64,000 bases of DNA, from positions 37 through 64,036 of the forward strand of contig JAGXFS010000104.1 in assembly GCA_024637275.1 (NCBI GenBank). Reading direction: 5' to 3'. Shown piece by piece: positions 5,070-63,456 of the stretch. The notes beneath the pieces are model-generated. The model made no database searches and was not told where the DNA came from. It saw only the letters and a list, made by a program, of their open reading frames with translations. The stretch's first letter is position 1. Each line of letters opens with the position of its first letter. This DNA comes from Acidimicrobiia bacterium (GTDB lineage: Bacteria > Actinomycetota > Acidimicrobiia > Spongiisociales > JAENVV01). The translations under genes and the position numbers were made by a program.

Positions 5070-5070
5070 G

Positions 5071-20672: not shown

Positions 20673-20911
20673 TTCGGAGCCAGACTAGCTGGCCGGTCGA
20701 TCGCCCGATTCGCACAATAAGTGGTCGCTCCGGTTGCAGAGTGGGTCGCAATGTCTGTATTCTGATCCGGCGCACGCATCGCGTGTGTGCGTACCTTCCC
20801 CACGATGGGCTTGAGAGCGGCTGTGGGCTGCGATCAAAACGCCGTGAGGAAGGCAGGCGTCTTTCCGCTTCGGTGGGAGACGTGCGCAAGATTGACGAAA
20901 TATTGGAGGAC

Positions 20912-22906: not shown

Positions 22907-23082
22907 TCCTGCGTCGATAACGATTGAAATTACTGGGGAGGGTTTCGGCCCTCCCCAGTTGTATGTGGTGGAAGGCGGGTCACCACCGCTTCAATGGTCG
23001 GCCGCATGACGATGAGGCGGGGCGGTTAGCAGGCCCTGGACTCAGCGGGTATCATGCACAAGCCATCTCGAAAGGATCTCCG

Positions 23083-24249: not shown

Positions 24250-24253
24250 CACT

Positions 24254-25363: not shown

Positions 25364-25376
25364 GAAGGGCAATTAG

Positions 25377-36721: not shown

Positions 36722-36776
36722 GTTCATCTGGCGTTTACGTTTAGGAGTGTTGACGGCAACCCAGGCGATGTACCTT
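36722..36776 (+). promoter_or_regulatory. Candidate PHO-box-like direct repeats overlapping a sigma-70-like promoter upstream of pstS
   Basis: Adjacent 11-nt units GTTCATCTGGC / GTTTACGTTTA / (GGA)GTGTTGACGG at 36722-36757. A putative -35 TTGACG (36750-55) and -10 TACCTT (36771-76) lie about 30 nt upstream of the pstS GTG. Confidence 0.35.
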
Positions 36777-36807
36777 CTGGATCGAATCAAAACTAGGAGA
36801 GTACGAC

Positions 36808-37833: not shown

Positions 37834-38747
37834 CATCGCCATCGTCAGTGATTGATCTGAGCGGAGATCCGTCGCGCCAACGCCGGGAGGCGTTGGTGCG
37901 ACGGACGTTCCTGGGGGCGGCAGTCTTCTCGGTTGCGATTAGCGTCGCGATCATCGTGTCGCTGATTGGAGAGGCGGGTTCGTTTCTCGACAAGATCGAC
38001 TTCTCCCAATTCTTTGCCGATGGCTGGTTTCCGCGCCGTGGCCGGTTTCAAGTTATGGCTCTTATCGCCCATTCGGCGATTATCACCGGTGTGGCTGTTG
38101 TTTTGGCTGTGCCCCTCGGGATAGGATCGGCGATCTACCTGTCCGAGTATGCCCGGTCGGGCACCCGGCGTCTGCTCAAGCCCGCCCTTGAGGTCCTAGC
38201 TGGCGTGCCGAGTGTGGTCCTCGGCGTGTTCGCCCTGAACTTCATCACCCCCCAACTCGTCAAGCGGATGTTTTCGACGGCTGAAACATCCAACCTTCTA
38301 GCGGCAGGACTGGGTGTGGGCATCCTGATCGTGCCTCTCGTCGCGTCGATTTCCGAAGACGCCATGCGAGCCGTTCCTGATTCGTTGCGGCAAGCCGCCT
38401 ACGGATTGGGCGCCAAGCCATGGCACGTCAGCTTGCGAGTCGTGGTACCCGCGGCATTATCCGGGATTGTGGCAGCGATCATTTTGGCGGTTTCGCGGGC
38501 CATCGGAGAGACGATGGTTGTGGCTCTCGCGGCCGGCAATGCCGGCATACTGAGCGTGAATCCACTTGAAGGCGGTATCACGCTGACAGGTGCGATCGCA
38601 GCGCTGGCGATCGGGTCCGATCAGGTAGCAGGTGACAATGCTGCCTTCCAAAGTTTGTTCTTCATCGGCCTTCTGTTGTTTGTCATGACGTTTGTTTTGA
38701 ACATCATCTCCGAGCGGGTAGTACGCCGCTACCGGCAGAGGTATTAG
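37812..38747 (+). CDS. pstC: Phosphate ABC transporter permease PstC
   Basis: Polytopic permease with EAA-like loop (SEDAMRAVPDSLRQAAYGLGA); position in the pst operon. Confidence 0.88.
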   Translation: MGVGTSLTSPSSVIDLSGDPSRQRREALVRRTFLGAAVFSVAISVAIIVSLIGEAGSFLDKIDFSQFFADGWFPRRGRFQVMALIAHSAIITGVAVVLAVPLGIGSAIYLSEYARSGTRRLLKPALEVLAGVPSVVLGVFALNFITPQLVKRMFSTAETSNLLAAGLGVGILIVPLVASISEDAMRAVPDSLRQAAYGLGAKPWHVSLRVVVPAALSGIVAAIILAVSRAIGETMVVALAAGNAGILSVNPLEGGITLTGAIAALAIGSDQVAGDNAAFQSLFFIGLLLFVMTFVLNIISERVVRRYRQRY

Positions 38748-38749
38748 AG

Positions 38750-39694
38750 ATGACGACTCGCACTGTCCCGACGACCCCGGATCTGGTAAGAGCAGCCCTG
38801 GCGGGTAGACGTTTCAACCTGGTTGACTCGCTGCTGGCCGGAGCGCTGCTGTTGAGCCTCCTTTCGTCGCTCTTGGTTCTCATCACCCTGCTGGCCGACA
38901 CCGTTCGTACGGCTCTTCCGGTGTTCGCGGACCGGGGTATGGATTTTGTCACGTCCTCATTGTCGGCCGACCCTGCGAAGGCAGGTGTCCTACAGGGCAT
39001 CCTCGGATCCCTGGCCTTGACCGGCTTCGTGTTGATGATTGGTTTTCCGCTCGGAGTGTCGGCGGCAATCTATCTTGAGGAGTACGCCACGGACAACGGG
39101 TTTACGAGATTCATCACCGCCAATGTCCGTAATCTTGCAGGTGTGCCATCGGTCGTGTATGGCATTTTGGGACTGGCACTATTTGTCAATTTGCTCGGTG
39201 GACTGACCAATGGCCGCACGGTTGTTTCCGGGGGGTTGACGCTGACCGTTCTCGTGTTGCCGATCATGATTATCACGACTTCCGAGGCCCTACGGGCTGT
39301 GCCAGGAACCGTCCGAGAGGCGTCGTTTGGGGTGGGAGCGACCAAGTGGGAGACAATTCGCCATCATGTGCTCCCCATCGCCCTTCCGACGATCCTGACC
39401 GGGACTGTCCTGACGGTCGCCCGAGCATTCGGCGAATCGGCGCCTCTGCTACTGGCGGGGGCTCTCGTGACCAATTTTTTTCAGCCGTCGGCGGATGCGT
39501 CGGTCGTTCAGTTGATCACCGATGAACGCTATACCGCGCTACCGCTGGTGGTGTTCAACTGGGCGCGGCAACCCCAGGAGGAATTCGTCCAACTAACTGC
39601 CGCGGCGGTGGTCGTTCTATTGGTGCTTTTGCTGAGTGTCAACGCCACGACGATCCTCCTGCGAGATCGATTCGAGATGAAGGCGCTACGATGA
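38750..39694 (+). CDS. pstA: Phosphate ABC transporter permease PstA
   Basis: Polytopic permease with EAA-like loop ([21 protein letters not shown]); position in the pst operon. Confidence 0.88.
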
Positions 39695-40539
39695 CCAGTC
39701 GAATGCCCGCTCAACACCTATCCGAAACGGTCGACCCTCAATCCAGTGATTCCGTGGATCCGGACGCGGGGATCCTGGTTGCCCGGGACCTCACCGTGCA
39801 TTACGGGTCGTTTCCGGCGATCAAAGACGTTTCGATGGCGGTGCAGCCGAACCAGATCACGGCACTGATCGGCCCGTCCGGATGCGGGAAGTCGACCATG
39901 CTGCGATGTTTCAATCGCATGAACGACCTGATCGAATCAGCCGCGGTGACGGGCCGTCTGACGTACCACGGGGTTGACCTGTATTCACCAGAGGTCGACC
40001 CGGTTCAGGTGCGCCGTCACATCGGCATGGTGTTTCAGAAGCCGAATCCTTTTCCTAAGTCGATCTACGCCAATATTGCTTTCGGGGCGAAGATTGCTGG
40101 TATCAAGACCGGACTGGATCAGTTAGTCGAAGAGTCGTTGACGAAAGCAGCGTTGTGGGAAGAGGTGAAGGACAAGCTTCACGAATCGGCCAATGCGTTG
40201 TCGGGTGGACAGCAGCAACGCCTCTGCATTGCCAGAGCCATCGCAACCAGTCCTGACGTGGTTCTGATGGATGAGCCAGCATCGGCACTTGATCCAATCG
40301 CTACCCTCCGCATCGAGGAATTGATGACTGAGCTTAAGCGGGAGTACACGATCATCGTCGTGACCCACAATATGCAGCAGGCGGCCCGTGTCTCGGACCG
40401 GACTGCGTTCTTCAACGTCAGCGTTTCCGACGACGGTCACCGTACGGGAAGGCTCGTCGAATTCGACGACACCACGACCATTTTCACGAACCCACGTGAG
40501 AAATCCACGGAGGACTACATCACAGGGAGGTTCGGGTGA
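39691..40539 (+). CDS. pstB: Phosphate ABC transporter ATP-binding protein PstB
   Basis: Walker [10 protein letters not shown], signature LSGGQQQRL, Walker [12 protein letters not shown], and the PstB-specific C-terminus. Confidence 0.92.
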
Positions 40540-41222
40540 GCGATCAGAGACGCAGTTTTCATGAGCATCTGGACGACATGGTCGAGGAGGTCGTGTCGAT
40601 GGGCATGTATGCGCGTGATATGGTCGAACGGGCCGGCCGGGCGCTCGTAAGCCGGGATGCGATCGGTGCTCAGCAAGTCATCAAAGACGACGACCCACTC
40701 GACTTGCGATACCTCAAGCTGGAGGAGGCCTGGCTGCAGACCATGGCCCTCCAGACTCCGGTAGCCAGCGACTTGCGGGTTATGTCGGTGGTCCTGCACG
40801 CTGGCCATTCCGTTGAACGCATCGGCGACCAGGCGGTGAGTACCGCCCGTGCCGTGCGAGCGACCATTGGGATGCCGTCGCAGGCTCAAGTGTTGGCGAC
40901 GGTGGCGGAGATTGTCGACCTGGTCTGCCCCATGGTCGATACCGCGTTGGATTCACTGGAGCGGCGTGACCTCGACATGGCCATGTCGGTGCCGACGATG
41001 GGTCGCCCCGTTGAACGCCTGGAACGGTCGATGTATTCTCTCGTCGCCAAGTGCCGTGAAGACGAAGAACAGCTCGAATGGGCCGTGCGGATGACGGTTG
41101 TTGCTCGGAACCTCGGACGGGTGGGTGCGCGGGCGGTGGACATAGCTGAGCAGGTCGCGTTCCTCCTCTCTGGCGTCTTTCGCGAGTTCACATCGGAGGA
41201 CTGGGATCCAGGGACCGGTTGA
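40536..41222 (+). CDS. phoU: Phosphate signalling complex protein PhoU
   Basis: Two PhoU repeats with conserved E/D…R…ERIGD motifs ([13 protein letters not shown]). Follows pstB. GTG start. Confidence 0.88.
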
Positions 41223-41911
41223 TGGCCACAAGTAGGACCGTCCTGGTTATTGAAGACGAACCGGCGCTATCGGACGCAATCAAGTACAGCCTTGAACGAG
41301 ACGGCTATGACGTGTACGTTGCCGATGACGGAATCGCTGGGCTGGAGTTGTTGAGAACTCATAATCCGGATGTCGTTCTTCTTGACTTGATGCTGCCGTC
41401 GCTCTCGGGATTGGATGTTTTGCGTACCCTACGAACCAGGTCGTCGGTTCCCGTGATCATCGTGACTGCCAAGGACAGTGAAGGTGACAAGGTTGCCGGC
41501 TTGGAGCTCGGAGCCGACGACTACGTCACAAAACCGTTCTCGATGCGCGAGTTGGTTGCCAGAGTTGGCGCCAATTTGCGACGCTCCTCCGTTCAGGTCG
41601 AGTCTGACGACGTCGTTCTGGTGGGCGGAGACGTCAAAGTCGACGTCGGGCGGCATGTGACCACCGTGCGGGGCAAGGAAGTCGAACTTCGCCCCAAGGA
41701 ATTCGCCCTTCTGGAACTGTTGCTCATGCGAGGGGGCAAACTGGTTACGCGCGATGATCTGATCGCTGAGGTCTGGGGGTATGACTATTTCGGTGATACC
41801 AAAACCCTCGATGTTCATATCAAACGGCTTCGGTCGAAGATTGAAGTCGACCCGAAACATCCTGAATACATCGTGACGGTACGAGGTATGGGGTATAAGT
41901 TCTCTCTATGA
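41219..41911 (+). CDS. OmpR/PhoB-family response regulator (likely phosphate-regulon regulator, RegX3/PhoP-like)
   Basis: Receiver domain (VLVIEDEP...D...LLDLMLP...K) plus a winged-helix C-terminus (…LDVHIKRLRSKIE…VRGMGYKF). Located directly after phoU and before a PAS histidine kinase. Confidence 0.85.
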   Translation: MMATSRTVLVIEDEPALSDAIKYSLERDGYDVYVADDGIAGLELLRTHNPDVVLLDLMLPSLSGLDVLRTLRTRSSVPVIIVTAKDSEGDKVAGLELGADDYVTKPFSMRELVARVGANLRRSSVQVESDDVVLVGGDVKVDVGRHVTTVRGKEVELRPKEFALLELLLMRGGKLVTRDDLIAEVWGYDYFGDTKTLDVHIKRLRSKIEVDPKHPEYIVTVRGMGYKFSL

Positions 41912-43605
41912 GGGGTGGCCTGGGTACCAAACTGGCCGTTTCCTACGTCGCGGCGGTCGTAACGGTCTTTGTGGTTACGGCACTTTTGATCGACCAGGCG
42001 GCCCGCGATGGCTTCATCGATGAGTTGATGACCACAACCCAGGCTGAGAGTCAGGCGGTGGCGGTGGCCCTCGATACCGGCCCTGTCGAGCCTACGGTCG
42101 AACAGCTGGCTACCTCGCTGGGCGTGCGAATAACCGTAATCAAGGTAGATGGCACGGTCGAAGCTGACTCTTCGGTGGACCCCGCCGTTATGGACAGCCA
42201 CAACGATCGGCCCGAAGTGATAGCTGCCCGGGCGAACGGCATGGGAACCTCTCTTCGGTTTAGCGAGACCATCGAGCAGGACCTCCTGTACGTTGCGGTA
42301 CTCGATGGTGATCGGGTCGTTCGGCTGGCAGTGCCCCTCGATGAAGTGAACGACCGGATGCTGCCGGTCCGTCTGCGAGCCGTGCTCGGAATCGTCGTCG
42401 TCACCATTGCCGGCCTGATCGTCGTGAGCGTTCTTGGGAGGCGAACCGAGCGGGTTATGCAGTCTCTTACGACCTCGGTCGCCGGCATGGCCGCCGGTCA
42501 ATCGCCAGAAGATGCGCTTGATGACGAAGTGTTGCACAAGTCGCCTGATGTTGCGGAGTTGTCCGAAGCGGTCCGCTCCATGTCTGAGCAGATCCGGTCA
42601 AGAGTCGGTGAGCTCGAGAGTGAGCAAGACCTCCGTGACCGCGTCCTGGAGGCGCTAGAAGAGGGAGTCCTGCTGCTGCGGGCAGGGCAGATCGATTACG
42701 CGAATGCGGCGGCGCGGCGATTGCTGGGCTCTGCCATCTCGGATGATGGTCGGCTGCGCCATCACCTTCTCGTGCGTATGGCGGCTGAACAAAGGGGACC
42801 CGATCGCATTCCACTCGGCAGCCGGGTTGTCGAGGTGGTAATTGGTTCGTCGGCCGATCAGGCGGTCGTGGTTCTGCGCGATGTGACGGATCGCGTACGA
42901 ACCGAGGCGATCAGGCGTGACTTTGTCGCGGATGCTTCCCACGAACTGAAGACGCCAGTCGCCGCCATTCAAGCCGCAGCCGAAACGATCCAAAGCGCCG
43001 TGGAGGACGGCGATATCGCCGCCGTATCGCACTTCAGTCAGCAGATCGAAGCTTCGGCGCTCCGGCTGGGTCGGATCGTGTCCGACCTGTTGGACCTGTC
43101 TCGCCTTGAGGCACAGAGTCTTGAGGTGCACCCCGTCGATTTGTCAACAGTTGTCAGCGAAGAGCTTGGCGCCGCCGCATTAGGACACGTGAGCGTTACA
43201 ACGGAGCTCGAACCGATCATCGTGCAGTTGAGTCGCCCCGACATAGCATTGGCCGTCCAGAATCTCCTGAGCAATGCCGGGCGGCATACCGATCCTGGTG
43301 GCGCAGTGCACGTGGCCGTGACCCACGATGGCGGAGAAGCCATCATTTCTGTGAGCGATACGGGCGTCGGCATACCGGCTCGGGATCTGCCACGAATCTT
43401 TGAGCGTTTCTACCGGGTGGATGCAGCTCGTTCACGCCAAACCGGAGCCACTGGACTCGGACTGGCGATCGTCCGGCACGTGGCCGAGAGGCACCGGGGT
43501 TCGGTCGAGGTTGTCAGTGAGCTGGGGGTCGGCTCGACGTTCCGAATTCACTTACCGCTCGATTCGGACGCTTCGGATCCTTTCGGTGCGGCACCGGTCC
43601 CGTGA
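41908..43605 (+). CDS. Sensor histidine kinase (PhoR/SenX3-like; TM + PAS + HisKA + HATPase_c)
   Basis: H-box ASHELKTPVAAI, N-box LLSNAGRHT, and G-boxes DTGVGI and GATGLGLAIV. An N-terminal TM segment and a PAS-like segment. Confidence 0.88.
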   Translation: MRGGLGTKLAVSYVAAVVTVFVVTALLIDQAARDGFIDELMTTTQAESQAVAVALDTGPVEPTVEQLATSLGVRITVIKVDGTVEADSSVDPAVMDSHNDRPEVIAARANGMGTSLRFSETIEQDLLYVAVLDGDRVVRLAVPLDEVNDRMLPVRLRAVLGIVVVTIAGLIVVSVLGRRTERVMQSLTTSVAGMAAGQSPEDALDDEVLHKSPDVAELSEAVRSMSEQIRSRVGELESEQDLRDRVLEALEEGVLLLRAGQIDYANAAARRLLGSAISDDGRLRHHLLVRMAAEQRGPDRIPLGSRVVEVVIGSSADQAVVVLRDVTDRVRTEAIRRDFVADASHELKTPVAAIQAAAETIQSAVEDGDIAAVSHFSQQIEASALRLGRIVSDLLDLSRLEAQSLEVHPVDLSTVVSEELGAAALGHVSVTTELEPIIVQLSRPDIALAVQNLLSNAGRHTDPGGAVHVAVTHDGGEAIISVSDTGVGIPARDLPRIFERFYRVDAARSRQTGATGLGLAIVRHVAERHRGSVEVVSELGVGSTFRIHLPLDSDASDPFGAAPVP

Positions 43606-43627: not shown

Positions 43628-44311
43628 GTGAGCGTTCCGAAACTTCGAAAAGCCATCCAGCGGAATCCACCGGGTTTGGCCTTCGAACGCGATCACTGGG
43701 ATGCCGGTCGGTCGGTGGTCGCCGGTATCGACGAGGTGGGTCGGGGATCGTGGGCTGGTCCCTTGACGGTGGTGGCCGCCATAGCTCCCCGGGACCGTCG
43801 CCTCTACAAGGTTCGCGATTCGAAAATGCTATCCGAGTCAGAACGTGAGGCGATCTACGATCGGATTGCCAGCTGGGTCGAAGGTTGGGCCGTGGGACAT
43901 GCGTCGCCCCAAGAATGCGACACCCTCGGAATGTCGGAGGCTCAGCGTTTGGCTACGAGAAGGGCGCTCGGGGGACTGCCCGTCGCTGTCGATGCCGTGC
44001 TGGTCGACGGAAACTGGGATTTCGTTGGGCATCCTCGTACGCAGACCATCATCAAAGGTGACGCCAAGTCGTTGTCAATCGCGGCCGCTTCGATCCTTGC
44101 GAAGGTGACGCGTGATCGGATGATGCGCGTTGCGTCCGAGCACTACCCGGTATATTCGTTTGAGGACAACAAGGGTTATCCCTGTCCCAGACACAAGGCG
44201 GCACTGTCCGGGTATGGCCCGTCGCCGATCCATCGCAAGTCCTGGGTATTCATGGATCATCTTCCGTGGAACGGCCTGGAACGCGTCGGCTCGCAGGATC
44301 GCCTGTTCTGA
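43628..44311 (+). CDS. rnhB: Ribonuclease HII
   Basis: Catalytic motif VAGIDEVGRGSWAGPLTVVAA and DSK motif (VRDSKMLSESER). GTG start. Confidence 0.9.
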   Translation: MSVPKLRKAIQRNPPGLAFERDHWDAGRSVVAGIDEVGRGSWAGPLTVVAAIAPRDRRLYKVRDSKMLSESEREAIYDRIASWVEGWAVGHASPQECDTLGMSEAQRLATRRALGGLPVAVDAVLVDGNWDFVGHPRTQTIIKGDAKSLSIAAASILAKVTRDRMMRVASEHYPVYSFEDNKGYPCPRHKAALSGYGPSPIHRKSWVFMDHLPWNGLERVGSQDRLF

Positions 44312-44378
44312 CTGGCTCCACCGTCGGCAGACTCTGTTGTGTGCCGATAGTGTTGTACGAACGACGATGAGGGTGATA

Positions 44379-47039
44379 ATGGCGGGAACGTGGGTATTTG
44401 ACTTCGAAACCGGTGATCCGGGCGATAAAGCCGCGCTCGGTGGGAAGGGCGCGGCGTTGTCAAGTATGACCCAGGCCAACCTGCCGGTGCCCCCAGGATT
44501 CACGATCACCACGGACGCATGCCGCTCGTACCAAGATGAAAGCGTTTTCCCGGATCTCATGTGGGGCGAAGTCGAGGAAGCTATCAAACGGTTGGAGGCT
44601 TCGACTGGCAAGGAATTCGGATCCGCCACCAACCCCTTGTTGGTGTCAGTTCGATCCGGCGCAGCGGTATCCATGCCCGGAATGATGGACACAGTCCTCA
44701 ACCTCGGTATCAACGAGTCGGCCAGAGTCGGGTTGGCCAAGGTGACCGGTGACGAGCAGTTCGCTTGGGATTCCTATCGTCGCTTCATAACCATGTTCGG
44801 TGAGATCGTTCTCGGCGTAGCCCCTGAGCGGTTTGAGGGAGCCGTCAACGCGACGCTGCAGAACAACGATTGCGATGCTCCCGGAAATCTTCCCGCCGAG
44901 GCGTTGGCTGGTCTCGTGGAACGTCTCAAAGCCATTGTGTACGGCCAATCCCGGCATGAAGTTCCCGACGACCCGTATGAACAACTTCGCTTGACGGTCG
45001 GTGCGGTATTCGACTCATGGTCGAACAAGCGAGCGCAGGACTACCGCAACCTCAATGGTATCCCCCACAATATGGGCACGGCCGTAAACGTTCAGTCGAT
45101 GGTTTTCGGAAATAGCGGCGAGAACTCGGGGACCGGAGTGGCTTTCACCCGGAATCCCACTACCGGCGAAGCGGCGCTGTTCGGGGAGTTCCTTCCTGAT
45201 GCCCAGGGTGAGGACGTGGTTGCCGGTATGAGAACTCCGTTGCCGATTGCTCATATGGCCGAACGCTTTCCCGATGCCTATAAGCAACTGGTCGAGATCG
45301 CCAACCGCCTGGAGACGCATTATGGCGATATGCAGGATCTTGAGTTCACCGTCGAGAACGGCAAGTTGTGGATGCTTCAAACCCGGTCGGGCAAGCGGAC
45401 CGGTCGGGCGGCCGTCAAGATCGCCGTCGACATGGCCGCTTCTGGCCTCATCAATGAGCAGGAGGCCGTTCTCCGGGTGTCGGCCGACCAACTCGAACAG
45501 TTGCTGCATCCGCTTATCGATCCATCTGTCGAGGTCGAAGTGATCGGTACCGGACTGCCTGCCTCGCCGGGCGCCGTGTCGGGACAAATCGTCCTTACGG
45601 CCGACGCGGCGGTGGATCTTGCTGAGGCAGGTACCCCGGTGATCCTGGTTCGTCACGAAACGAATCCCGATGACTTCCATGGCATGGTGGCCTCTCGAGC
45701 CACCTTGACGGCCCGGGGCGGCGTGACGTCTCACGCGGCGGTGGTGGCGCGAGGTATGGGTAAGTCGTGCGTGGTCGGATGCACGAGCATGCGTGTTGAT
45801 TTCGAGAAACGTCTCGTCCGTTTTGACCATGTGGTGTTGTCCGAGGGCGATTGGATCACCGTCGATGGCAACACGGGGCGAGTGCTGGCGGGCCAGGTTG
45901 CGACGATTGAGCCCGAAACCGACGCCGATTTCGATTTGCTGATGGGGTGGGCTGACAGTCACCGCACGCTGGGCGTTCGCGCCAATGCGGACACACCCGA
46001 AGATGCGGCGGAGGCCCGCCGCCTGGGGGCCCAGGGGATCGGACTGTGCCGTACGGAACACATGTTCTTTGGTGACGAGCGAATCGCCGCAATGCGCGAG
46101 ATGATTATGGCCTCGAACGAGGTTTCCCGCCGCGAGGCACTCGGGAAATTGGAGCCGTATCAGACCGCAGATTTCGAGGGGATCTTCACGGCGATGGACG
46201 GGTTTCCAGTCACGATTCGACTGCTCGACCCCCCACTTCACGAGTTCCTACCGAATGAATCGGAACTGGCTAGAGAGTTGACCGATCTGAAGCTGCGGCT
46301 TCGGCGAGTCAATGGACTTGACAAGATCGACCGGCTTCTCGAAGAGATACACGAACGGGAGGTTGTCATCGCCCAGGTGCAGCGTCTGGCTGAGGAGAAC
46401 CCGATGCTCGGGCACCGTGGGTGCCGGTTGGCGCTCACGTATCCCGAGGTGACCGAGATGCAGGCGAGAGCGTTGTTTACGGCTGCAGTTCGATGCGTCG
46501 ATCGGGGGATTTCGGTGCTGCCGGAGGTAATGGTCCCCCTGGTTGGCTTCGAACCGGAACTTCGCAATCAAGCTGACCTGATCCGCTCGATTGCCGAAGA
46601 GGTCTTCGTCTATCACGGCCTCCGGGTCGATTACATGGTCGGAACCATGGTTGAGTTGCCACGTGCCTGCCTTATGGCTGATGAACTGGCCACGGTTGCC
46701 GAGTTCTTCTCATTCGGCACGAATGACCTCACCCAGATGACGCTTGGCATGAGCCGCGACGATTCCAGCCGGTTTTTGCCCGGGTACGTGCAGCGCGGTG
46801 TCATACCGGCGGACCCATTCCAGACGCTCGACGTATCGGGCGTTGGTCAGCTGATTCGCCTCGGGGTCGAGCGCGGTCGAGCCTCGCGCCCTGGCATGAA
46901 GATCGGAGTCTGTGGCGAGCACGGAGGAGATGCGGCCTCGATCGCGTTTTGCCATGAGGTCGGCCTCGACTACGTGTCGTGCTCGACTTACCGGGTGCCA
47001 GTCGCCCGTCTGGCGGCCGCCCACGCGGCTCTTGCCTAG
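44379..47039 (+). CDS. ppdK: Pyruvate, phosphate dikinase
   Basis: N-terminus WVFDFETGDPGDKAALGGKGAALSSM, the phospho-His region GGVTSHAAVVARGMGKSCVVGC, and a C-terminal PEP-utilising TIM barrel with FFSFGTNDLTQ. ATG 44379 is chosen; an earlier in-frame ATG 44367 is possible. Confidence 0.92.
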   Translation: MAGTWVFDFETGDPGDKAALGGKGAALSSMTQANLPVPPGFTITTDACRSYQDESVFPDLMWGEVEEAIKRLEASTGKEFGSATNPLLVSVRSGAAVSMPGMMDTVLNLGINESARVGLAKVTGDEQFAWDSYRRFITMFGEIVLGVAPERFEGAVNATLQNNDCDAPGNLPAEALAGLVERLKAIVYGQSRHEVPDDPYEQLRLTVGAVFDSWSNKRAQDYRNLNGIPHNMGTAVNVQSMVFGNSGENSGTGVAFTRNPTTGEAALFGEFLPDAQGEDVVAGMRTPLPIAHMAERFPDAYKQLVEIANRLETHYGDMQDLEFTVENGKLWMLQTRSGKRTGRAAVKIAVDMAASGLINEQEAVLRVSADQLEQLLHPLIDPSVEVEVIGTGLPASPGAVSGQIVLTADAAVDLAEAGTPVILVRHETNPDDFHGMVASRATLTARGGVTSHAAVVARGMGKSCVVGCTSMRVDFEKRLVRFDHVVLSEGDWITVDGNTGRVLAGQVATIEPETDADFDLLMGWADSHRTLGVRANADTPEDAAEARRLGAQGIGLCRTEHMFFGDERIAAMREMIMASNEVSRREALGKLEPYQTADFEGIFTAMDGFPVTIRLLDPPLHEFLPNESELARELTDLKLRLRRVNGLDKIDRLLEEIHEREVVIAQVQRLAEENPMLGHRGCRLALTYPEVTEMQARALFTAAVRCVDRGISVLPEVMVPLVGFEPELRNQADLIRSIAEEVFVYHGLRVDYMVGTMVELPRACLMADELATVAEFFSFGTNDLTQMTLGMSRDDSSRFLPGYVQRGVIPADPFQTLDVSGVGQLIRLGVERGRASRPGMKIGVCGEHGGDAASIAFCHEVGLDYVSCSTYRVPVARLAAAHAALA

Positions 47040-49097: not shown

Positions 49098-49823
49098 CTA
49101 GTCGGCCTTCGCCGATTCGCTTGGTGACGGCGTCCCCACTGCGGATCGCCATCCTTGATAGCCGAACCAGATGAGCGCCAGCAGGGCGATGGCGGTCACG
49201 ATATGGACCCGCCAACGAATGGTGGCCCGGATCGTGTCGAGGGTTCCGGTTACGTCCGTCAGTCGTCCATCGACTTCGGTTCGGAGGCTCTTGGCGCCGT
49301 CGAGCCTCCCACGCATGGAACTGATCTGTTCGCTGGTGAGCGGCCCTTCCCTGGCGAGGAGCGCGGTGGCGGTACTGGCAGCTTCAGCAACAGTCCCTCG
49401 GAGGCTGATCACGTCCGGGGTGATGAGGCGCTGAGCCGCGGTTCCGGACAATACCCGGAGCGTGTCAAGTCTTGCATCGAGATCTATGGTTCGGTCCAGT
49501 GCCACGGCCAATCCCAATTCCGCGCCCGCGGCGATGGCATCGACCTCAAGTGTGAGTTTTCGCTTGGTTTGCGTATCCAGGGTCACGTTGCCTGCCGGGT
49601 CCGCCGCCAGCACCGATAGCTCGATTGCTGCCAGCGTTCTCCCTACCAGATCATCGATATCTTGAAGGCTCGAACGGCCCTCCTCGGCGTCGGCGACGGC
49701 GGCGGCGTGCACGAGCTCAACCGTATGTTGGAGCTGGAAATCGGCGACAATAACGGCCGCGGCCAGGCTCAACGCCAGGGCCACACTCACCCATCCACGC
49801 CAGGAGTCTCGCAACCGCATCAT
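49098..49823 (-). CDS. Hypothetical membrane protein (N- and C-terminal TM helices flanking an Ala/Leu-rich helical domain)
   Basis: An ORF on the same strand immediately upstream of cysK. The N-terminal TM is WVSVALALSLAAAVIV and the C-terminal TM is IVTAIALLALIWFGY. No recognised motif. Confidence 0.5.
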   Translation of the reverse strand: MMRLRDSWRGWVSVALALSLAAAVIVADFQLQHTVELVHAAAVADAEEGRSSLQDIDDLVGRTLAAIELSVLAADPAGNVTLDTQTKRKLTLEVDAIAAGAELGLAVALDRTIDLDARLDTLRVLSGTAAQRLITPDVISLRGTVAEAASTATALLAREGPLTSEQISSMRGRLDGAKSLRTEVDGRLTDVTGTLDTIRATIRWRVHIVTAIALLALIWFGYQGWRSAVGTPSPSESAKAD

Positions 49824-49920
49824 CGGCTGGACACTACCGCGAGTGGTGGTTCTAGCTGACGCTTGCCATCACGACCTGGCTCCGGACGCGCTAGCGTTTC
49901 CTGGAGCTCGCTGGGGGAAG

Positions 49921-52186: not shown

Positions 52187-53962
52187 ATGGATTGGGAGCC
52201 GAACGCCAGGGTCATCGACGCAGCCAACATCTCTAAAATACTGCTGGACCGTGAGTTGACATCAGTCAGCGAGTTTCACGCATGGTCGATTGCCAACCGC
52301 GACCAATTCTGGCAGTTGATGATCGAGCGCCTGGGAATCCAGTTCTCCGTGGCGCCCGTAACCGTGTCGGATGGTCCCCCCCAGGACACTCGTTGGCTGC
52401 CCGGCGCCGAACTCAATATCGCGCTGTCCTGCTTCCAGGGTGCTGATGAATCGGTTGCCGTGGTCTATCAAACGAAAGCCGGGATTGCGTCCATGTCCGT
52501 GGCGGAGCTGCGGGCTCAGGTACAAACGTGTGCAGGCGGCCTACGCCGGCTGGGGATTGGTGAAGGCGATCGTGTAGCGATGGCCATGGCGATGTCCGTC
52601 GAATCCGTGATCGGCTACCTGGCATTGGTCTGGGCGGGAGCCACGGTCGTGTCGATCGCCGACAGTTTCGCAGCTCCAGAAATACAGAATCGGCTGACAT
52701 TGGTTGGCTGCGATACGGTCATTACCCAGGACGAGATCGTCAGGGGAGGCCGTCGACTCCCGATGTACGCGAAGGTCGTCGAAGCTGGGGCTCGAAGGTG
52801 CATCGTCGTGGATACCGGGGGTGACCATGCAGTGCGGCCAGAAGACATTGCCTGGAACGATCTGTTCGACGGAGACCCGATGGTTGAGCCAGCCATACGC
52901 TCGAGTGCCAGTCATACAAATCTGCTCTTCAGTTCCGGAACCACCGGGGTTCCGAAAGTGATTCCCTGGGATCAGTCATCGCCGATCAAAGCAGCAACCG
53001 ATGGGTTTCTCCACCAGGACATTCATCCCGGTGACGTGGTGGCCTGGCCGACGAACCTTGGATGGATGATGGGTCCGTGGCTCATTTACGCAGCATTGCT
53101 TAATAGGGCGACTATCGCGCTTTCAAACGAGGTGCCCACATCGCTCGAGTTTTGTCGCTTCGTCACGAACGCCACGGTCAACGTCCTTGGCGTGGTTCCT
53201 GCGCTCGTCAGGGCTTGGCGGAGCGTGCCGGATGTGGAGGGGCTTGACTGGTCCGCCGTTCGGGTCGTGACGTCGACCGGCGAGGCATCGTCCGTCGACG
53301 ACATGCGATGGCTCATGAGCGTTGCCGGGGCGCCTGTAATTGAGTATTGCGGCGGAACTGAGATTGGGGGAGGTTATCTCTCCAGCACAGTTGTGGACGC
53401 ATTCGACGCCTCGACGTTCACCACCCCGTGCTTTGGGCTCGACATCCGACTGTTTGACGACGGTGACGAGTCTCAAACCGAGGGAGAAGTTTTTCTCGTG
53501 CCGCCTTCGATCGGCTTGTCGACTGAGTTGCTCAATCGAGATCATCAGGCCGTCTATTACGACGGAGTCCCAGCGGCTGATGTTCCGATCCGACGGCACG
53601 GGGACCAGCTGCGACGACTCGCTAACGGCCACTATCGGGCGATGGGGCGCTCGGATGACACCATGAATCTGGGCGGCGTAAAGGTCAGTTCCGCAGAGAT
53701 TGAGCGGGTTGTCAACCTGGTGCCGGGCGTCATCGAGAGTGCTGCCGTGGGAGTGCCACCCGACGGTGGGGGGCCTGATCGGTTGTTCGTCTTCGCGGTT
53801 GCGCCAGATTGTGATCCCGGCCAGCTGCGACCGCTTATTCAGGACGCAATCAAGGCTGATTTGAATCCACTTTTCAAGGTCGCGGAGGTTCGGTTGGTTG
53901 ACGCGATGCCGCGGACCGCCTCTGCGAAGGTCATGCGACGGACCCTGCGGGATCTCGTATGA
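52187..53962 (+). CDS. AMP-forming acyl-CoA synthetase with Acs-type N-terminal domain (acetyl/propionyl/acetoacetyl-CoA synthetase-like)
   Basis: AMP-binding signature SSGTTGVPKV, an N-terminal ACAS_N-like region (SEFHAWSIANRDQFWQ), and a C-terminal lysine region (ASAKVMRR). Confidence 0.85.
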   Translation: MDWEPNARVIDAANISKILLDRELTSVSEFHAWSIANRDQFWQLMIERLGIQFSVAPVTVSDGPPQDTRWLPGAELNIALSCFQGADESVAVVYQTKAGIASMSVAELRAQVQTCAGGLRRLGIGEGDRVAMAMAMSVESVIGYLALVWAGATVVSIADSFAAPEIQNRLTLVGCDTVITQDEIVRGGRRLPMYAKVVEAGARRCIVVDTGGDHAVRPEDIAWNDLFDGDPMVEPAIRSSASHTNLLFSSGTTGVPKVIPWDQSSPIKAATDGFLHQDIHPGDVVAWPTNLGWMMGPWLIYAALLNRATIALSNEVPTSLEFCRFVTNATVNVLGVVPALVRAWRSVPDVEGLDWSAVRVVTSTGEASSVDDMRWLMSVAGAPVIEYCGGTEIGGGYLSSTVVDAFDASTFTTPCFGLDIRLFDDGDESQTEGEVFLVPPSIGLSTELLNRDHQAVYYDGVPAADVPIRRHGDQLRRLANGHYRAMGRSDDTMNLGGVKVSSAEIERVVNLVPGVIESAAVGVPPDGGGPDRLFVFAVAPDCDPGQLRPLIQDAIKADLNPLFKVAEVRLVDAMPRTASAKVMRRTLRDLV

Positions 53963-54648
53963 AGACGATCGGCCTACTGGGAGGGATGAGTTGGGAATCT
54001 TCGATCGAATATGAACGGACGATCAATGAGTATGTCCGGGGCCAGCTCGGTGGGTCGAGTTCTGCCAGCTTGATCATCCGTTCCTACAACTTCTCCGAGA
54101 TCCACGGACTGCAAGAGGCGGGTGGTTGGGAGGCAGCTGGAGCTCGCCTCGCAGCGGATGCGGCGCTCCTCGAAGAATCGGGGGCCGAGATCATCATCCT
54201 CTGCACGAACACCATGCATCGACTGGCCGATCAGATTCGTGCAGCCATCACAGTCCCGTTTTTGCACATTGCTGATGCCACTGCGAACAGGATCATCGAG
54301 GCCGGCGAAAGCAAGGTCGGATTGCTTGGCACCCGATTCACCATGGAGGATGACTTTTATGTGGGGAACCTCGAGGCCCACGGGCTCGACGTCCTCGTGC
54401 CCGAGGCCGACGACCGCACGATTGTCCATGATGTTATCTACAACGAGTTGGTGCGCGGCATTGTCTCTACTGAGTCGCGGGATGAGTTCTCCCGGATAGC
54501 CAGCTCGCTAGTTGCCAGAGGAGCGGAAGCCATCATCGCCGGGTGTACCGAGATTGAACTATTGCTACAACCGGATGACGTGTCCGTCTCTTATTACCCG
54601 ACCGCCCGTATTCATGCCGAAACCGCGGCGAGGGCGGCACTCAAGTAG
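53959..54648 (+). CDS. Aspartate/glutamate/hydantoin racemase-family protein (Asp racemase-like)
   Basis: The two active-site Cys regions of this racemase family are ILCTNTMH and IIAGCTEIELL. N-terminus MKTIGLLGGMSWES. Confidence 0.85.
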   Translation: MKTIGLLGGMSWESSIEYERTINEYVRGQLGGSSSASLIIRSYNFSEIHGLQEAGGWEAAGARLAADAALLEESGAEIIILCTNTMHRLADQIRAAITVPFLHIADATANRIIEAGESKVGLLGTRFTMEDDFYVGNLEAHGLDVLVPEADDRTIVHDVIYNELVRGIVSTESRDEFSRIASSLVARGAEAIIAGCTEIELLLQPDDVSVSYYPTARIHAETAARAALK

Positions 54649-54685: not shown

Positions 54686-55912
54686 ATGTCGGGACGAACT
54701 GTGCACGCCAAGTTCGCCGGTTGGCGGATTCTGGCTTTGGCGATCGTGACAGCCGCCATGTCGGTACCCGGTCAGACGCTTGGTGTTTCAGTCTTCGTCG
54801 AATCCTTCATCACGGACCTCTCGCTTTCTCGAGATGCGGTGTCCCTCGCCTATTTGGTTGGGACGTTGTTGGGAGCGCTGGGGATGCCGTTTGTGGGTCG
54901 GGCTATCGACCGAATAGGTGTTCGGACGGCCATGACATGGATCGGAGCTGGCTTCGGGATCGGGCTGGCGTTCATGGGCGGCGTCCAGGGATTTGTCTCG
55001 CTGGCGATCGGCTACGGGATGATCAGGTTTCTCGGGCAGGGCTCGCTGAGCCTCGTTTCGACGGTTGCGGTCACGCATTGGTTTGATCGACGGCGCGGAC
55101 TGGCGCTTGGGATCATGGCCACAGCGGTCTCGGCGCTTATGGCGCTTGGCCCGATCGCCTTGAACACCATCATCGAGGGCTTTTCCTGGCGCATTGCGTG
55201 GGTCGTCTCGGCCGTGGCGGTTTGGCTCATTGTGATTCCGATCGCTCGATTCGGCATCATCGACAAGCCAGCGTCCATCGGTCAACTCCCCGATGGGGGC
55301 CCGGTCAGCGGAGACCTGGTTCAGCCACTTCGAAAGTCCTATACCCGATCGGAAGCAATCCGGACCAGGCGCTTATGGGTGATTCTGGCGGCTTCTGGTG
55401 CGGCCGGCATGCTGAGCACCGCTCTCAACTTCCACCAGATCAGCTTGCTCGGTGAGGCGGGTCTCACGGCCGGAGAGGCCGCGCTCATGTTTGCACCGCA
55501 GGTCATCGGGAGTTCGCTCGCCGGCCTGGCTTTTGGTGCGTTGGCGGATCGGGTGCATGGTCGCTGGCTGATCATGGCGGCGATGGCTCTACTTGGATCG
55601 GCACTCTTGATGGTCAACACTCTGGAGAGCACCGGAGATATCCTGCTCTATGCGGTGCTCCTGGGGGCGGCCGGTGGTGCCTCGCGGACCGTAAGCAGCG
55701 CCCTGCCACCACGTTGGTTCGGGACAGAGCACATCGGGGCGATTCAAGGATTCGGGACATTCACCAATGTGGCCTCAACCGCGATCGGTCCGTTCGGGCT
55801 GTCCGTAGTGTTCGGCATCACCGGCGCTTACGGGCCGGCACTCACGCTTGCTGCCATCGTTCCGCTCGTGGTATTCGTTGCAGCGGTGTTCACCAAGGCT
55901 GACGAGACCTAG
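54686..55912 (+). CDS. MFS transporter
   Basis: 12-TM pattern, a GxxxDRxGxR-like loop (FVGRAIDRIGVRTAM), and a repeat in the second half. Confidence 0.8.
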   Translation: MSGRTVHAKFAGWRILALAIVTAAMSVPGQTLGVSVFVESFITDLSLSRDAVSLAYLVGTLLGALGMPFVGRAIDRIGVRTAMTWIGAGFGIGLAFMGGVQGFVSLAIGYGMIRFLGQGSLSLVSTVAVTHWFDRRRGLALGIMATAVSALMALGPIALNTIIEGFSWRIAWVVSAVAVWLIVIPIARFGIIDKPASIGQLPDGGPVSGDLVQPLRKSYTRSEAIRTRRLWVILAASGAAGMLSTALNFHQISLLGEAGLTAGEAALMFAPQVIGSSLAGLAFGALADRVHGRWLIMAAMALLGSALLMVNTLESTGDILLYAVLLGAAGGASRTVSSALPPRWFGTEHIGAIQGFGTFTNVASTAIGPFGLSVVFGITGAYGPALTLAAIVPLVVFVAAVFTKADET

Positions 55913-57075
55913 TCGCCACGTTGCTGCGTGGACGGCATCACGTAGTACCAGTCGCGACGGTCCAAACCTGCCGCCTTCAGCCTGGCCTGAGCGCCATGCA
56001 GAACCTCACCAAGTTTGGTTCCCTGGTATATCCAGCTTTCTGCTTGCCGGGCGTCCGGGACGTGGTCGGAAAGTGAGAGAGCGGCCTCCTCGTAATACGA
56101 GCGCAAGTCCATCGCGACGGCAATGTGATCGCCTCCTGGCACCTCGATTTCCTCGAGCGCGGTGCCGTCGCTGATCTTGACGAACACGTCGATCAGGTCG
56201 GGGATCTCATCGGCGGTTCCTGTCCGGCCGACGCTCGTGCGACCGTACCGCTCAACAGTGCGGTTGTAGGCGGCGCGCAGACCGAGGGCTTCATCTACGG
56301 CCGGATGCAGATCGGGGTTGAACCTGGGCGGTATGGCGCACGCGAGCACCTCGGACGAAGCGTCCTCGATGATGATCGGGAAGTCGACGAGAACCGGTCC
56401 CGACGGTTCGTTCAGCAGATCAAAAGCGGCGCTGATAACGGACGTTTGAAACCCGGAGTCGAGTGGTTTGCCGAGTGGTCGTCCGAGCGGAAACTCCACA
56501 TACAGAGCTCTCGGTGGGGCAGACTTTTCGATCTGGCCCCGAACGAGAGCCAATGCGACGGTGGCGAAGCCTTGTGCTTCGAAGATGTGAGCGAGCGTAC
56601 CGACCGTACGCGTACAAAACGGTCAGACGGGAGTGAGGAGAATCGTATCCACGCCGTCTTCGCGAAGAAGATGAGCCGCGGCCGGACCGCTGTCGAGACG
56701 CATCGTCGCGAGGTTGTGATCAGCCTGAGCGCCCATGAACGAGATGTGCTGCTCGGCGACGGAACCGATGATACCTGCGGCGGCCATCTCGTCGAGGCGA
56801 TCGATAGGCAGCACCGTGTTGACATCGAGGTTGAACCCTGAGCGATCAAAGTTGGGACTGAAATGAGCGAACGAAAGATTGGTTGTGCCGTGTGGGAGGA
56901 CCGTGAAACCCTCGTCAGATTGGGACCACAGGCTCGCGGAATCGGTCGTCAATCCGGCGGTGGTGACGACCGCAACCCGCGACTCGGACAGCGGTTTGGG
57001 ACTCGTCCACGCAAGGGAATCGAACTGATATACCGGTATGTCGTTAGCGCGTGCCCTGACGGTGGTGTCGCTCAT
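55909..57075 (-). CDS. Predicted selenoprotein: GrdB/PrdB (glycine/D-proline reductase selenoprotein B)-like protein with in-frame TGA (Sec) at 56623-56625
   Basis: Two ORFs on the minus strand (57075→56626 and 56553→55909) are in the same frame and separated only by TGA plus 23 stop-free codons. The downstream part has no ATG start. Sequence across the junction is …GVDTILLTPV-U-PFCTRTVG… (a UxxC redox motif). An fdhF-like SECIS hairpin begins 12-14 nt 3' of the UGA. GC3 bias continues across the junction. Sec falls at residue ~151 of ~388. Confidence 0.65.
56590..56622 (-). promoter_or_regulatory. SECIS-like stem-loop immediately 3' of the in-frame UGA (mRNA GCGUAC-GGUCG-GUACGC)
   Basis: mRNA nt 15-31 after the U of UGA form a 6-bp GC-rich stem with apical loop GGUCG. 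In E. coli fdhF the loop is GGUC at nt 22-25 (from memory); here GGUC sits at nt 21-24. Confidence 0.55.
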
Positions 57076-57184
57076 GCCTCTCCTCGGGTTGGGTCCCTTA
57101 GAGAACCTAGTGGACGCGACGATCGGGGTTGAGGGTTCACCCGTTAGGGTCCATCGCGCATGTCCCTTTTTAGACAGTTCAAAT

Positions 57185-58330
57185 GTGACTGATTCGGCAA
57201 ATCGGCGCAGACCGGTCGTCATCTGGCTCCTGACGGCGTTTGGCTTCGCGGCCTTTGCGGCGCTGGGATTTACGGACGGCGCTCTCGGACCCAGCTGGCC
57301 GACGATACGCGGCGAGTTCGGCCTGCCGGTATCGGGTCTGGGGATCATCACCGCCGCATTGACGATGGGATACATCAGCGGGTCGCTCGTCGGTCCCCGG
57401 GTCACCGCAAAGCTGGGGATAGGCAGATCGATGGTCGGTGCGGTGGGCCTGGGTGTCGTGTCTCTTGTGGTATTCGTTTCGGCACCGAACTGGCCAACAG
57501 TTATTTTGACCTGGTACTTGAGTGGGGTCGGTGGCGGATGGCTCGACATGACCGTCAATTCGTATTTCGCTCGGTACCGGTCGCTGCGCGCGATGAATTT
57601 GTTACATGGCCTCTACGGAGTGGGGGCCACGCTCGGTCCACTCGTGGTGGTGACGATACTCCCGAACTGGCGGTGGGCCTTTGTCGGTTTGGCCGTAGTG
57701 GGCGTCGTGCTGTTTGCCACAGCGATGGCCGTTTCGCCGATGTGGAAAACCGTTCCGGTTAATGGCAGCAGCGGGGTGGGCCGCCCGGCCAGGGCTTCGA
57801 CCCTCGCCGCCTTTTTCGTGTACACAGGAATGGAGGTGGCTGCGGGCCAATGGTCGTTCACGCTGTTGTTCGAACAGAGAGGGATCGCCGAATCGGCGGC
57901 CGGTCTCTGGGTCGGGCTTTTTTGGGGTGGCTTGACGGCGGGCCGAATCGGCATGGGCCTTTTCGGTAAACGCGTATCCACCAAGGGGGCGATCGACGTG
58001 TCCGTGGTGACGATCCTGGTTGGAGCCGTCACCTTGTGGTTGGATCCTGCTGGATGGGGTGTCGTTGGTTTGCCAATCCTCGGTCTCGGTATGGCTTCGG
58101 TGTTTCCGGGCCTGGTGTCCCTGACTCCCGGGCAAGTGGGAGGCGACGGTACGGACGCGGCGGTCGGATACCAACTTGCGATGGCCGGGCTGGGAGCTGC
58201 CTTCCTGCCGTGGGTGGTCGGCGTCCTCGCCGACCGTTTCACGGTCGAAGTCCTGGGGCCGGTGCTGCTGGTCAGCTGGGCAGTCCTGGCGTACGCCTGG
58301 TTGCGGGCCCGGACGCTTAGGGCTACTTAG
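57185..58330 (+). CDS. MFS transporter
   Basis: 12-TM pattern. GTG 57185 is chosen because the ATG 57038 version would overlap the divergent selenoprotein gene by 38 nt. Hydrophobic helices begin right after (PVVIWLLTAFGFAAFAALGF). Confidence 0.75.
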   Translation: MTDSANRRRPVVIWLLTAFGFAAFAALGFTDGALGPSWPTIRGEFGLPVSGLGIITAALTMGYISGSLVGPRVTAKLGIGRSMVGAVGLGVVSLVVFVSAPNWPTVILTWYLSGVGGGWLDMTVNSYFARYRSLRAMNLLHGLYGVGATLGPLVVVTILPNWRWAFVGLAVVGVVLFATAMAVSPMWKTVPVNGSSGVGRPARASTLAAFFVYTGMEVAAGQWSFTLLFEQRGIAESAAGLWVGLFWGGLTAGRIGMGLFGKRVSTKGAIDVSVVTILVGAVTLWLDPAGWGVVGLPILGLGMASVFPGLVSLTPGQVGGDGTDAAVGYQLAMAGLGAAFLPWVVGVLADRFTVEVLGPVLLVSWAVLAYAWLRARTLRAT

Positions 58331-62399: not shown

Positions 62400-62472
62400 T
62401 CTTCCTCTCCTCAGATCTGGCCTGCCAGTTGGGGTTGCCTCACGCCCTGGGGCCCACAACTGAGGAGGGAAG
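62400..62472 (+). promoter_or_regulatory. RBS-sequestering hairpin: anti-SD CUUCCUCUCCUCAG (62401-14) pairs with SD/AUG-proximal CUGAGGAGGGAAG (62460-72)
   Basis: 13 bp with one bulged U, covering the whole Shine-Dalgarno up to 1 nt before the ATG 62473. The 45-nt loop carries a further CCAACTGG/CCAGTTGG inverted repeat. Confidence 0.45.
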
Positions 62473-63456
62473 ATGAAACGTTTCTCTATCGCACTAGCGG
62501 TCGCTCTACTGGTGACGCTGGTCTCGATGGTCGGCGCGGTAGCCGACCACCAATTGGACATCACTACTACGAAGGCGCCGATCACTCCGGATGGTACGAC
62601 GGCCGGTGCGATTACCGACTTCGTGCTGACCTTCCGTGATATCGATCCGGCAGTCTTCGGCATCAGCATGCTTGCGGGGGGAACGGTGACCGCAACGCTG
62701 CCACCGGCCTTCGTGAACACCGAGGTCGGGACGAACACGGCGATTCTGCTCCAGGGATGGCCCCAGAGCCCACCCGCTCCGCCACCAGCTTTCCCGTGGG
62801 TGACTACGACAGGTGCCAATACGGTCACCGCTACGCTCACCTCAGATTTTCTGGTTGGCGACAGTGGGCCGGGGTTCAAGCAGGTCCACTTGCTGCTGAA
62901 CTCGTTCCGTAATCCCGGTCCTGGCATGTACGACGTGGATTTGGTTATTCAGCCAGATCCAACATCGACTGTGACGTACTCAGGGATCGGCACGGTGCAC
63001 ATTCTGCCCAAGGCTCGCCCCAGTGTGAATGCGGTCAGTGTGTTCAGCGGGGGAGCGCCGCCTCCGTTCAACAACGCCATCTATCAGTCGGTACTTGCGG
63101 GCGATGCGGCGAATCCCGTCGGGCTGTACCTGTGGGACGGAGGCAGCTCGGTGCTTGACGGCGTCTTCGCTCCATTCCTTGACGTCGACATTGCCATGAC
63201 CAGTCTCACGCACGGGCGCCTGGTCCAGGGCAAGAAGACGGTGGGTCAAGTGTGGATCGACGCACCTGCTGGAGCCGACGATTACGGGATCGCGACCGGC
63301 GGTCCGTCGTCGCCCGGCATCACGGCGATCAGCGGGTTCCCGGTTGGGGTCTTGCTGACGACGTTCACGACCGATGCTGACGTCACCGGCCCCTACACGA
63401 TCACCTATCGGCTCAACAACGGGAACACCCAGAGGTTGTTCGTAACCGCCCAGTAG
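62473..63456 (+). CDS. Secreted hypothetical protein (signal peptide, Thr/Gly/Pro-rich, predicted beta-rich)
   Basis: ATG is preceded by the strong SD GAGGAGGGAAG. N-terminus MKRFSIALAVALLVTLVSMVGAVA (signal peptide). No known motif. Confidence 0.65.
   Translation: MKRFSIALAVALLVTLVSMVGAVADHQLDITTTKAPITPDGTTAGAITDFVLTFRDIDPAVFGISMLAGGTVTATLPPAFVNTEVGTNTAILLQGWPQSPPAPPPAFPWVTTTGANTVTATLTSDFLVGDSGPGFKQVHLLLNSFRNPGPGMYDVDLVIQPDPTSTVTYSGIGTVHILPKARPSVNAVSVFSGGAPPPFNNAIYQSVLAGDAANPVGLYLWDGGSSVLDGVFAPFLDVDIAMTSLTHGRLVQGKKTVGQVWIDAPAGADDYGIATGGPSSPGITAISGFPVGVLLTTFTTDADVTGPYTITYRLNNGNTQRLFVTAQ

Follow-up and report, generated by a model that had tools for sequence, protein, structure and literature searches.

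An in-frame UGA and a conserved SECIS-like hairpin in a predicted PrdB-like selenoprotein gene from an Acidimicrobiia genome

The window analyzed here, a 64-kb (64,000-nucleotide) stretch of an Acidimicrobiia genome assembly (contig JAGXFS010000104.1), contains on its minus strand two open reading frames (ORFs), 56623..57558 and 55909..56553, that lie in a common frame and are separated by a single TGA codon and 23 codons without a stop (56554-56622), up to the TTG at 56553 that was picked as a start by the ORF finder. In the translation of the minus strand from 57075 to 55909, the TGA at 56623-56625, codon 151, is the sole in-frame stop inside the gene, and the peptide around this codon, ...DGVDTILLTPV*PFCTRTVGTLAHIFEAQGF..., yields a U-x-x-C motif if the codon is read as selenocysteine (Sec). 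The features of this locus, including a predicted selenocysteine insertion sequence (SECIS) hairpin, are the following, all on the minus strand.

55909..57075, minus: complete predicted selenoprotein gene, 388 sense codons, from ATG 57075-57073 to TAG 55911-55909 (from translation)
57077..57085, minus: Shine-Dalgarno-like GAGGAGAGG just 5' of ATG 57075, read from the sequence and presumably functional as such
56410..57042, minus: PrdB/GrdB-like domain, residues ~12-222, delineated by TIGR04483, PF07355, invariant columns and the model of a Cys homologue
56623..56625, minus: UGA codon 151, predicted Sec, the U of U-P-F-C; Cys at this column in full-length homologues, TGA in orthologues
56614..56616, minus: UGU codon, Cys154, presumably the resolving Cys in UxxC; invariant in 44 aligned homologues, with the role assigned by analogy with PrdB/GrdB
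56595..56611, minus: predicted SECIS hairpin, +15..+31 from the U of UGA, with the 6-bp stem GCGUAC/GUACGC and the 5-nt loop GGUCG (56601-56605)
56554..56622, minus: 23 codons from the UGA to the TTG, coding for PFCTRTVGTLAHIFEAQGFATVA and not a spacer; the peptide is kept in orthologues, with variable third codon positions (CCN for Pro, UGY for Cys)
55912..56409, minus: family-specific C-terminal extension, residues ~223-388 (~165 residues), mostly helical in the model

An earlier reading of the window, made from the nucleotide sequence alone (hereafter, the sequence-only reading), had pointed to the shared frame split by one TGA and 23 stop-free codons, and to a UxxC motif with Sec two residues ahead of a Cys, and both are reproduced by the translation (U151-P-F-C154). 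It had also stated that the downstream ORF lacks an ATG or GTG start; the nominal start is indeed a TTG, but an in-frame GTG is present at codon 193, where initiation would cut the conserved domain. The nominal start of the upstream ORF, TTG 57558, is an artefact, since a divergent MFS transporter gene occupies the opposite strand there; the N-terminus MSDTTVRA... lines up with the N-termini of homologues, supporting ATG 57075. A search for other TGA-split ORF pairs across the window produced only antisense or out-of-frame artefacts. At its 3' end, the gene abuts an MFS gene on the plus strand (54686..55912), such that the TAG stops of the two genes overlap in the palindrome CTAG (55909-55912). 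From the sequence comparisons described below, the two minus-strand ORFs almost certainly represent one 388-codon gene in which the internal UGA is read as selenocysteine with the aid of a conserved RNA hairpin.

A search covering 5.8 billion proteins detected relatives of two types: proteins of 380-400 amino acids that cover the whole query, and fragments of 213-240 amino acids that cover only the part downstream of the UGA. The 388-residue product aligns end to end with the 380-400-residue homologues, and the alignment with Cys-containing proteins, proposed as a check in the sequence-only reading, shows 15 full-length homologues with a Cys in the UGA column, within the motif TPV-C-PxC-[TS]RT (P0002-P0044 carry TPV-C-PxC-TRT); the respective Cys codons, TGT or TGC, were verified at the DNA level. 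In profile comparisons, run on the translation with C in place of U, codon 151 is spanned by the NCBIfam PrdB model TIGR04483 (residues 26-222, profile positions 24-219 of 238, E=3e-32, 112 bits). The Pfam GRDB family PF07355 matches residues 12-148 (model positions 205-345) with 30.8 bits, above the gathering threshold of 22, and the Sec falls directly past the end of this model.

These alignments bear on the possibility that the locus consists of two genes, one for a 150-residue protein ending at the TGA and another for a 214-residue protein starting at TTG 56553 or at the later GTG. Such an arrangement is what gene callers produce, and hundreds of 'hypothetical proteins' of 210-255 amino acids in the databases fit it. 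It is, however, at odds with the way in which the 23 intervening codons are conserved, as a peptide with synonymous variation, and with the single-chain Cys homologues and the PrdB model that span the junction. Furthermore, in the AlphaFold2 (AF2) model of the Cys homologue P0002 (predicted local distance difference test score, pLDDT, 94), both halves belong to one alpha/beta domain, which is followed by the helical C-terminal extension, and neither a promoter-like site nor a ribosome-binding site precedes TTG 56553. Two separate genes are therefore extremely improbable. The expectation of the sequence-only reading that gene callers would split the gene agrees with the content of the databases, where most relatives are C-terminal fragments of 210-255 residues; with the post-UGA part (residues 152-388) as the query, 460 clusters at 50% identity match at E<=1e-10.

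Conservation of the TGA was assessed in 160 loci, half of them from GTDB species representatives and half from JGI metagenomes. A TGA occupies the codon-151 column in all 80 genome loci and in 79 of the 80 metagenome loci (159 of 160), and the frame remains open for 231-252 codons past the TGA in 158 Sec-type orthologues; this is the opposite of homologues terminating at the TGA column, the outcome that the sequence-only reading had named as telling against its proposal. Acidimicrobiia (Ilumatobacteraceae, Microthrix and marine single-cell genomes) make up most of the carriers, alongside Dehalococcoidia, Eremiobacterota, Dormibacterota, Binatia, Holophagae and metagenome-assembled genomes (MAGs) of Proteobacteria, from soils, lakes and oceans. 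The nearest relative of the window protein comes from an uncultured Acidimicrobiia MAG (L001, 93% amino acid identity). A pseudogene or an assembly error, that is, a nonsense mutation or sequencing error converting TGC or TGT to TGA in a Cys-type gene, would require a single base change, and full-length Cys-type homologues do exist. Nevertheless, 159 of 160 independent loci, drawn from different phyla and assemblies, share this TGA, a hairpin missing from the Cys forms goes along with it, and the 237 codons past it are conserved at the protein level. We give this explanation practically no credence, as conservation of the TGA in effect refutes it.

Three MAG records among these loci, titled Klebsiella pneumoniae, Bifidobacterium breve and Ferrithrix thermotolerans (L011, L055 and L044), carry Acidimicrobiia/Deltaproteobacteria-like copies of the gene and are probably mislabelled. 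Two Cys-type contigs each encode two paralogues of the family (L162, 8126-9088 and 10001-11200; L163, 2050-3243 and 10001-11161), surrounded by genes of fatty-acid, CoA and P450 metabolism; one of the L162 paralogues is shorter (320 amino acids) and has the motif YCPDCCRT.

The hairpin described in the sequence-only reading, GCGUAC-GGUCG-GUACGC at +15..+31, is present downstream of the UGA (stand-alone free energy of -8.2 kcal/mol), and it is this fold, rather than a minimum-energy rival discussed below, that is conserved. Covariation was analyzed in 75 distinct orthologue sequences, with 500 shuffles and slid positions as controls. Across the 6-bp stem, 99.1% of cells are paired and 29 cells are double-compensated; the observed stem score was reached by none of the 500 shuffles, and the slid controls were at most 72% paired. 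The pair 18-28 is C-G in 45 sequences, U-A in 28 and U-G in 2 and is never mismatched, and at pair 15-31, one orthologue (L034) shows a double change from G-C to U-A. At position 18 lies the third, synonymous base of an Arg codon, and a Thr, Val or Ala codon has its first base at position 28, so that a silent site tracks an amino-acid-changing site, as expected under selection for RNA structure. The loop has the consensus N-G-U-N-R, with G22 and U23 conserved in at least 90%. Given the TGA column in 159 of 160 loci and the 99.1% pairing with compensatory changes, the hairpin is more than a chance occurrence.

Comparison with the Cys-form genes (L083 and L161-L168) separates the RNA element from the encoded peptide: in ten cases, only 2-3 of the 6 stem pairs remain in these genes, in one case 5 of 6, and L161 encodes the identical peptide CTRTVGTL yet lacks the hairpin. 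Cys forms with the same peptide but without the stem indicate that the hairpin goes with the UGA, not with the peptide. An origin of the hairpin in the palindromic peptide T-R-T-V-G-T was considered and rejected on this account, given that the Cys-form codons for the same peptide break the stem. The sequence-only reading had made its proposal contingent on conservation of the hairpin in orthologues, and conservation with covariation, together with absence from the Cys-form genes, was found.

A conserved stem-loop at a short distance downstream of the UGA, with a small G-containing loop, is what characterizes bacterial SECIS elements (PMC1088965, PMC8659212). In the mini-SECIS of Escherichia coli fdhF, a 17-nt hairpin formed by nucleotides 15-31 has G23 and U24 in the loop and a bulged U17 (PMC8659212). 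The likeness to the fdhF hairpin noted in the sequence-only reading holds: both elements span nucleotides 15-31, with an 11-nt spacer and a small loop at the apex in which a G-U is conserved. In the window, however, the G-U is at positions 22-23 instead of 23-24, the 6-bp stem is perfect, without the bulged U, and the loop comprises 5 nt instead of 4.

Several points weigh against decoding of the UGA as Sec through this hairpin. The genes selA, selB and selD and tRNA-Sec were not found in the 64-kb window (Pfam on 48 ORF translations, ARAGORN and Rfam), and no Sec machinery was detected with ARAGORN in the flanks of 60 related loci; the Sec competence of the source genome is accordingly unproven, although the absence of this machinery from a 64-kb sample is uninformative. 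Thermodynamically, the 71-nt region does not stand out (z-score of -1.7); at minimum energy, it folds into another hairpin, which pairs the UGA with the GGUCG loop (-15.8 kcal/mol vs -9.6). Selenium insertion at residue 151 is itself a prediction from the conserved anatomy of the gene, and the catalytic mechanism proposed below is drawn purely by analogy, with no clue to a partner or substrate conserved across the loci. As to the first of these points, in a related order of Acidimicrobiia, Actinomarinales, selA, selB, selC and selD are all present (bioRxiv 10.64898/2026.04.03.716425), which by analogy makes the use of Sec plausible here. As to the second, the minimum-energy fold was rejected as the functional element: its pairing across the orthologues amounts to only 71%, and 55-65 of the 75 have the central pairs disrupted. 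The complementarity between the GGUC of the loop and a GACC overlapping the UGA (56595-56625, minus strand) is confined to the window and about 10 of the 75 orthologues, namely those with a GGUCG loop; the alternative hairpin that buries the UGA, not being conserved family-wide, could be either a chance feature or a lineage-specific switch.

The failure to find Sec machinery in the window or flanks would also be compatible with read-through of the UGA that does not involve Sec, be it near-cognate suppression (insertion of Trp or Cys) or a lineage-specific reassigned code. Insertion of Cys at Sec codons does occur under selenium limitation. In the window, however, TGA is the ordinary stop of 13 of the 29 Pfam-supported ORFs, and the very gene in question ends in TGA in 94 of 157 Sec-type orthologues, each mRNA then combining one recoded and one terminating UGA. 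The code is therefore not reassigned, and the recoding is site-specific. Simple suppression would have no role for a covarying hairpin linked to the UGA, at the canonical SECIS distance and with a G/U loop. Read-through without Sec appears very unlikely. Taking all these observations together, we hold with high confidence that the locus is one gene, encoding a selenoprotein of 388 residues in the GrdB/PrdB (PF07355) superfamily, with UGA151 predicted to be decoded via the hairpin.

Within this superfamily, the suggestion of the sequence-only reading that the N-terminal domain is compatible with GrdB/PrdB is supported by the matches to TIGR04483 and PF07355, and the Sec at residue 151, which that reading had likened to a Sec near residue 152 in PrdB, matches U151 of Clostridioides difficile PrdB (PMC11229817). 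The PrdB/GrdB-like domain has a Rossmann-like alpha/beta organization with the motifs VTTAGL, HxSxNFDR, U-P-x-C-x-R-T and FPLGRPLGKP. The C-terminal extension, with the conserved motifs C246-x-x-P-P, D-x-R-x-Y-Y-E-E and W348, has no match in Pfam or NCBIfam, and a comparison of the P0002 model with the PDB returned only generic Rossmann-fold matches, none of them specific. With GrdB, GrdF and GrdH, the window protein shares the match to PF07355 above the gathering score, and the NCBI name of the Cys forms is 'glycine/sarcosine/betaine reductase selenoprotein B family protein'. Unlike GrdB, however, it lacks the N-terminal half of about 200 residues, it scores only 25-43 bits against the GrdB/GrdF/GrdH models (cutoffs of 65-800), and there is no grdA, grdE or grdC nearby. 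Of the profiles named for checking in the sequence-only reading, only PF07355 was matched above threshold; TIGR01917 and TIGR01918 stayed below their cutoffs (25.8 bits vs 602 and 36.8 vs 65.45, respectively).

The relationship with PrdB is closer. The window protein resembles PrdB of Clostridium sticklandii and C. difficile in having a homologous alpha/beta domain with Sec151 in a UxxC motif, where Sec presumably is the nucleophile. It could thus be the genuine PrdB subunit of a D-proline reductase whose prdA and prdC genes lie elsewhere: its best NCBIfam match is PrdB, the Sec is at the same residue number as in C. difficile PrdB, the PrdB name is used by JGI and in two published selenoproteome surveys considered below, and a gene for a racemase is located nearby.

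53959-54645, plus: Asp/Glu/hydantoin racemase gene, upstream of the MFS gene that adjoins the selenoprotein gene, 1.3 kb away

This assignment is contradicted, in the first place, by the score of 112 bits, against an equivalog cutoff of 300 for TIGR04483, and by the size of the protein: PrdB consists of about 240 residues and has no domain comparable to the conserved extension of about 165 residues, whereas the window protein, with 388 residues, is roughly 150 residues longer. Genomic context argues in the same direction. Clustering by BLAST of 5,925 flank ORFs from 167 loci revealed no conserved partner, the commonest neighbour family being present in only 35 loci, and PrdA/GrdE-like proteins, PrdC and GrdA were not found among the conserved neighbours, within the limits of an analysis of flanks, such that a distant prdA is possible. 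Unlike PrdB, the window gene has no prdA, prdC or prdH neighbours, and its context is variable: the flank genes belong to ordinary metabolism (SDR, acyl-CoA dehydrogenase, enoyl-CoA hydratase, luciferase-like oxidoreductase, aminotransferase and Mo-hydroxylase). In the window, a gene for an AMP-binding enzyme, the Asp/Glu racemase gene and the MFS transporter gene are convergent with the selenoprotein gene, and the second MFS gene is divergent. This arrangement recurs only in the nearest relatives, the racemase synteny being limited to L001-L003 and L108. Finally, the hosts largely are, as we infer, lineages not known for Stickland fermentation. A genuine PrdB is therefore unlikely, and from its sequence the window protein is classified as PrdB-like and not as a true PrdB. 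The Asp/Glu/hydantoin racemase recalls the racemase of the prd cluster but belongs to a different family.

The statement in the sequence-only reading that selenoproteins of this class are sparsely documented does not stand, inasmuch as the Sargasso Sea and Global Ocean Sampling (GOS) selenoproteomes already contain this family, under the name 'Proline reductase PrdB' (PMC1088965, PMC2398784). The Sargasso Sea selenoproteome included 42 selenoprotein genes of 'Proline reductase PrdB' with a UxxC motif, against a single Cys form (Zhang, Fomenko & Gladyshev 2005, PMC1088965). In the GOS survey, there were 235 Sec and 110 Cys members, and the family was among the most abundant marine selenoproteins (Zhang & Gladyshev 2008, PMC2398784). 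Over 170 residues (E=2e-67), including part of the C-terminal extension, the window protein shares 56% identity with entry AACY01584242 in the supplement of the Sargasso Sea survey; the sequence of this entry, VVLLTPVuPLCTRTVGTLASVLEQSG...FPLGRPLGKP..., has TPVuPxCTRT and FPLGRPLGKP in common with the window protein. The window protein and the marine-metagenome 'Proline reductase PrdB' are hence alike in family, in the UxxC motif and in the excess of Sec forms over Cys forms; unlike the members from the metagenome surveys, the window copy comes from an Acidimicrobiia genome with 60% GC. The selenoprotein status of the family has been established since 2005, the window gene is a further, unannotated member, and the recoding mechanism is not new in principle. 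The two surveys kept the long stand-alone form together with true PrdB, and SECIS covariation was not reported in them (PMC1088965, PMC2398784); in the literature on PrdB-like and GrdB-like proteins, we found nothing specific to the stand-alone form.

The conserved anatomy of the gene suggests how the UGA could be decoded. With the ribosome at UGA151, the hairpin at +15..+31 would be positioned just outside the mRNA channel, where its small G/U-containing loop could be offered to SelB carrying Sec-tRNA(Sec), resulting in Sec incorporation instead of termination. The product would have a U151-P-F-C154 center on the Rossmann-like, PrdB-homologous domain, followed by the helical domain specific to the family. 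If PrdB and GrdB are a guide, the selenol would act as the catalytic nucleophile, and Cys154 would resolve the intermediate to a selenenyl-sulfide, which could then be re-reduced by a general cellular thiol system. As a stand-alone protein without a pyruvoyl subunit (PrdA/GrdE), the enzyme probably has a substrate other than D-proline.

We are inclined, with moderate confidence, toward the view that the 'proline reductase PrdB' family is a self-contained selenoenzyme, in which a PrdB-like Sec domain is combined with a helical domain and which has no pyruvoyl partner and is not a subunit of proline reductase. If this is the case, the family, which is among the most abundant environmental selenoproteins and for which the 'PrdB' label is probably misleading, would represent a major uncharacterized selenium-dependent activity, with nearly universal Sec (159 of 160 loci), masked by annotation as split 'hypothetical' fragments. 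Hundreds of relatives are stored in public databases as shortened hypothetical proteins of 210-255 amino acids, and the combination of the 17-nt hairpin with the TPV-U-PxC-TRT signature offers a simple rule for the repair of such split annotations. A Sec-dominant stand-alone enzyme in the widespread Acidimicrobiia would, in addition, imply a selenium requirement of these lineages.

Elsewhere in the window, three ORF-sized, coding-like stretches have no Pfam match at E<=1e-5: 62464-63453 on the plus strand, and 49101-49868 and 5038-5796 on the minus strand. The window otherwise encodes housekeeping and transport functions, including CTP synthase, EPSP synthase, LytB and the Der GTPase, as well as the following.

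11906-12955, plus: XerC/D-type tyrosine recombinase gene
20596-20672, minus: tRNA-Pro(GGG), the only tRNA of the window
20618-27412: Opp-like ABC operon
36754-43602: Pst/PhoU/two-component phosphate cluster
44124-47036: PPDK

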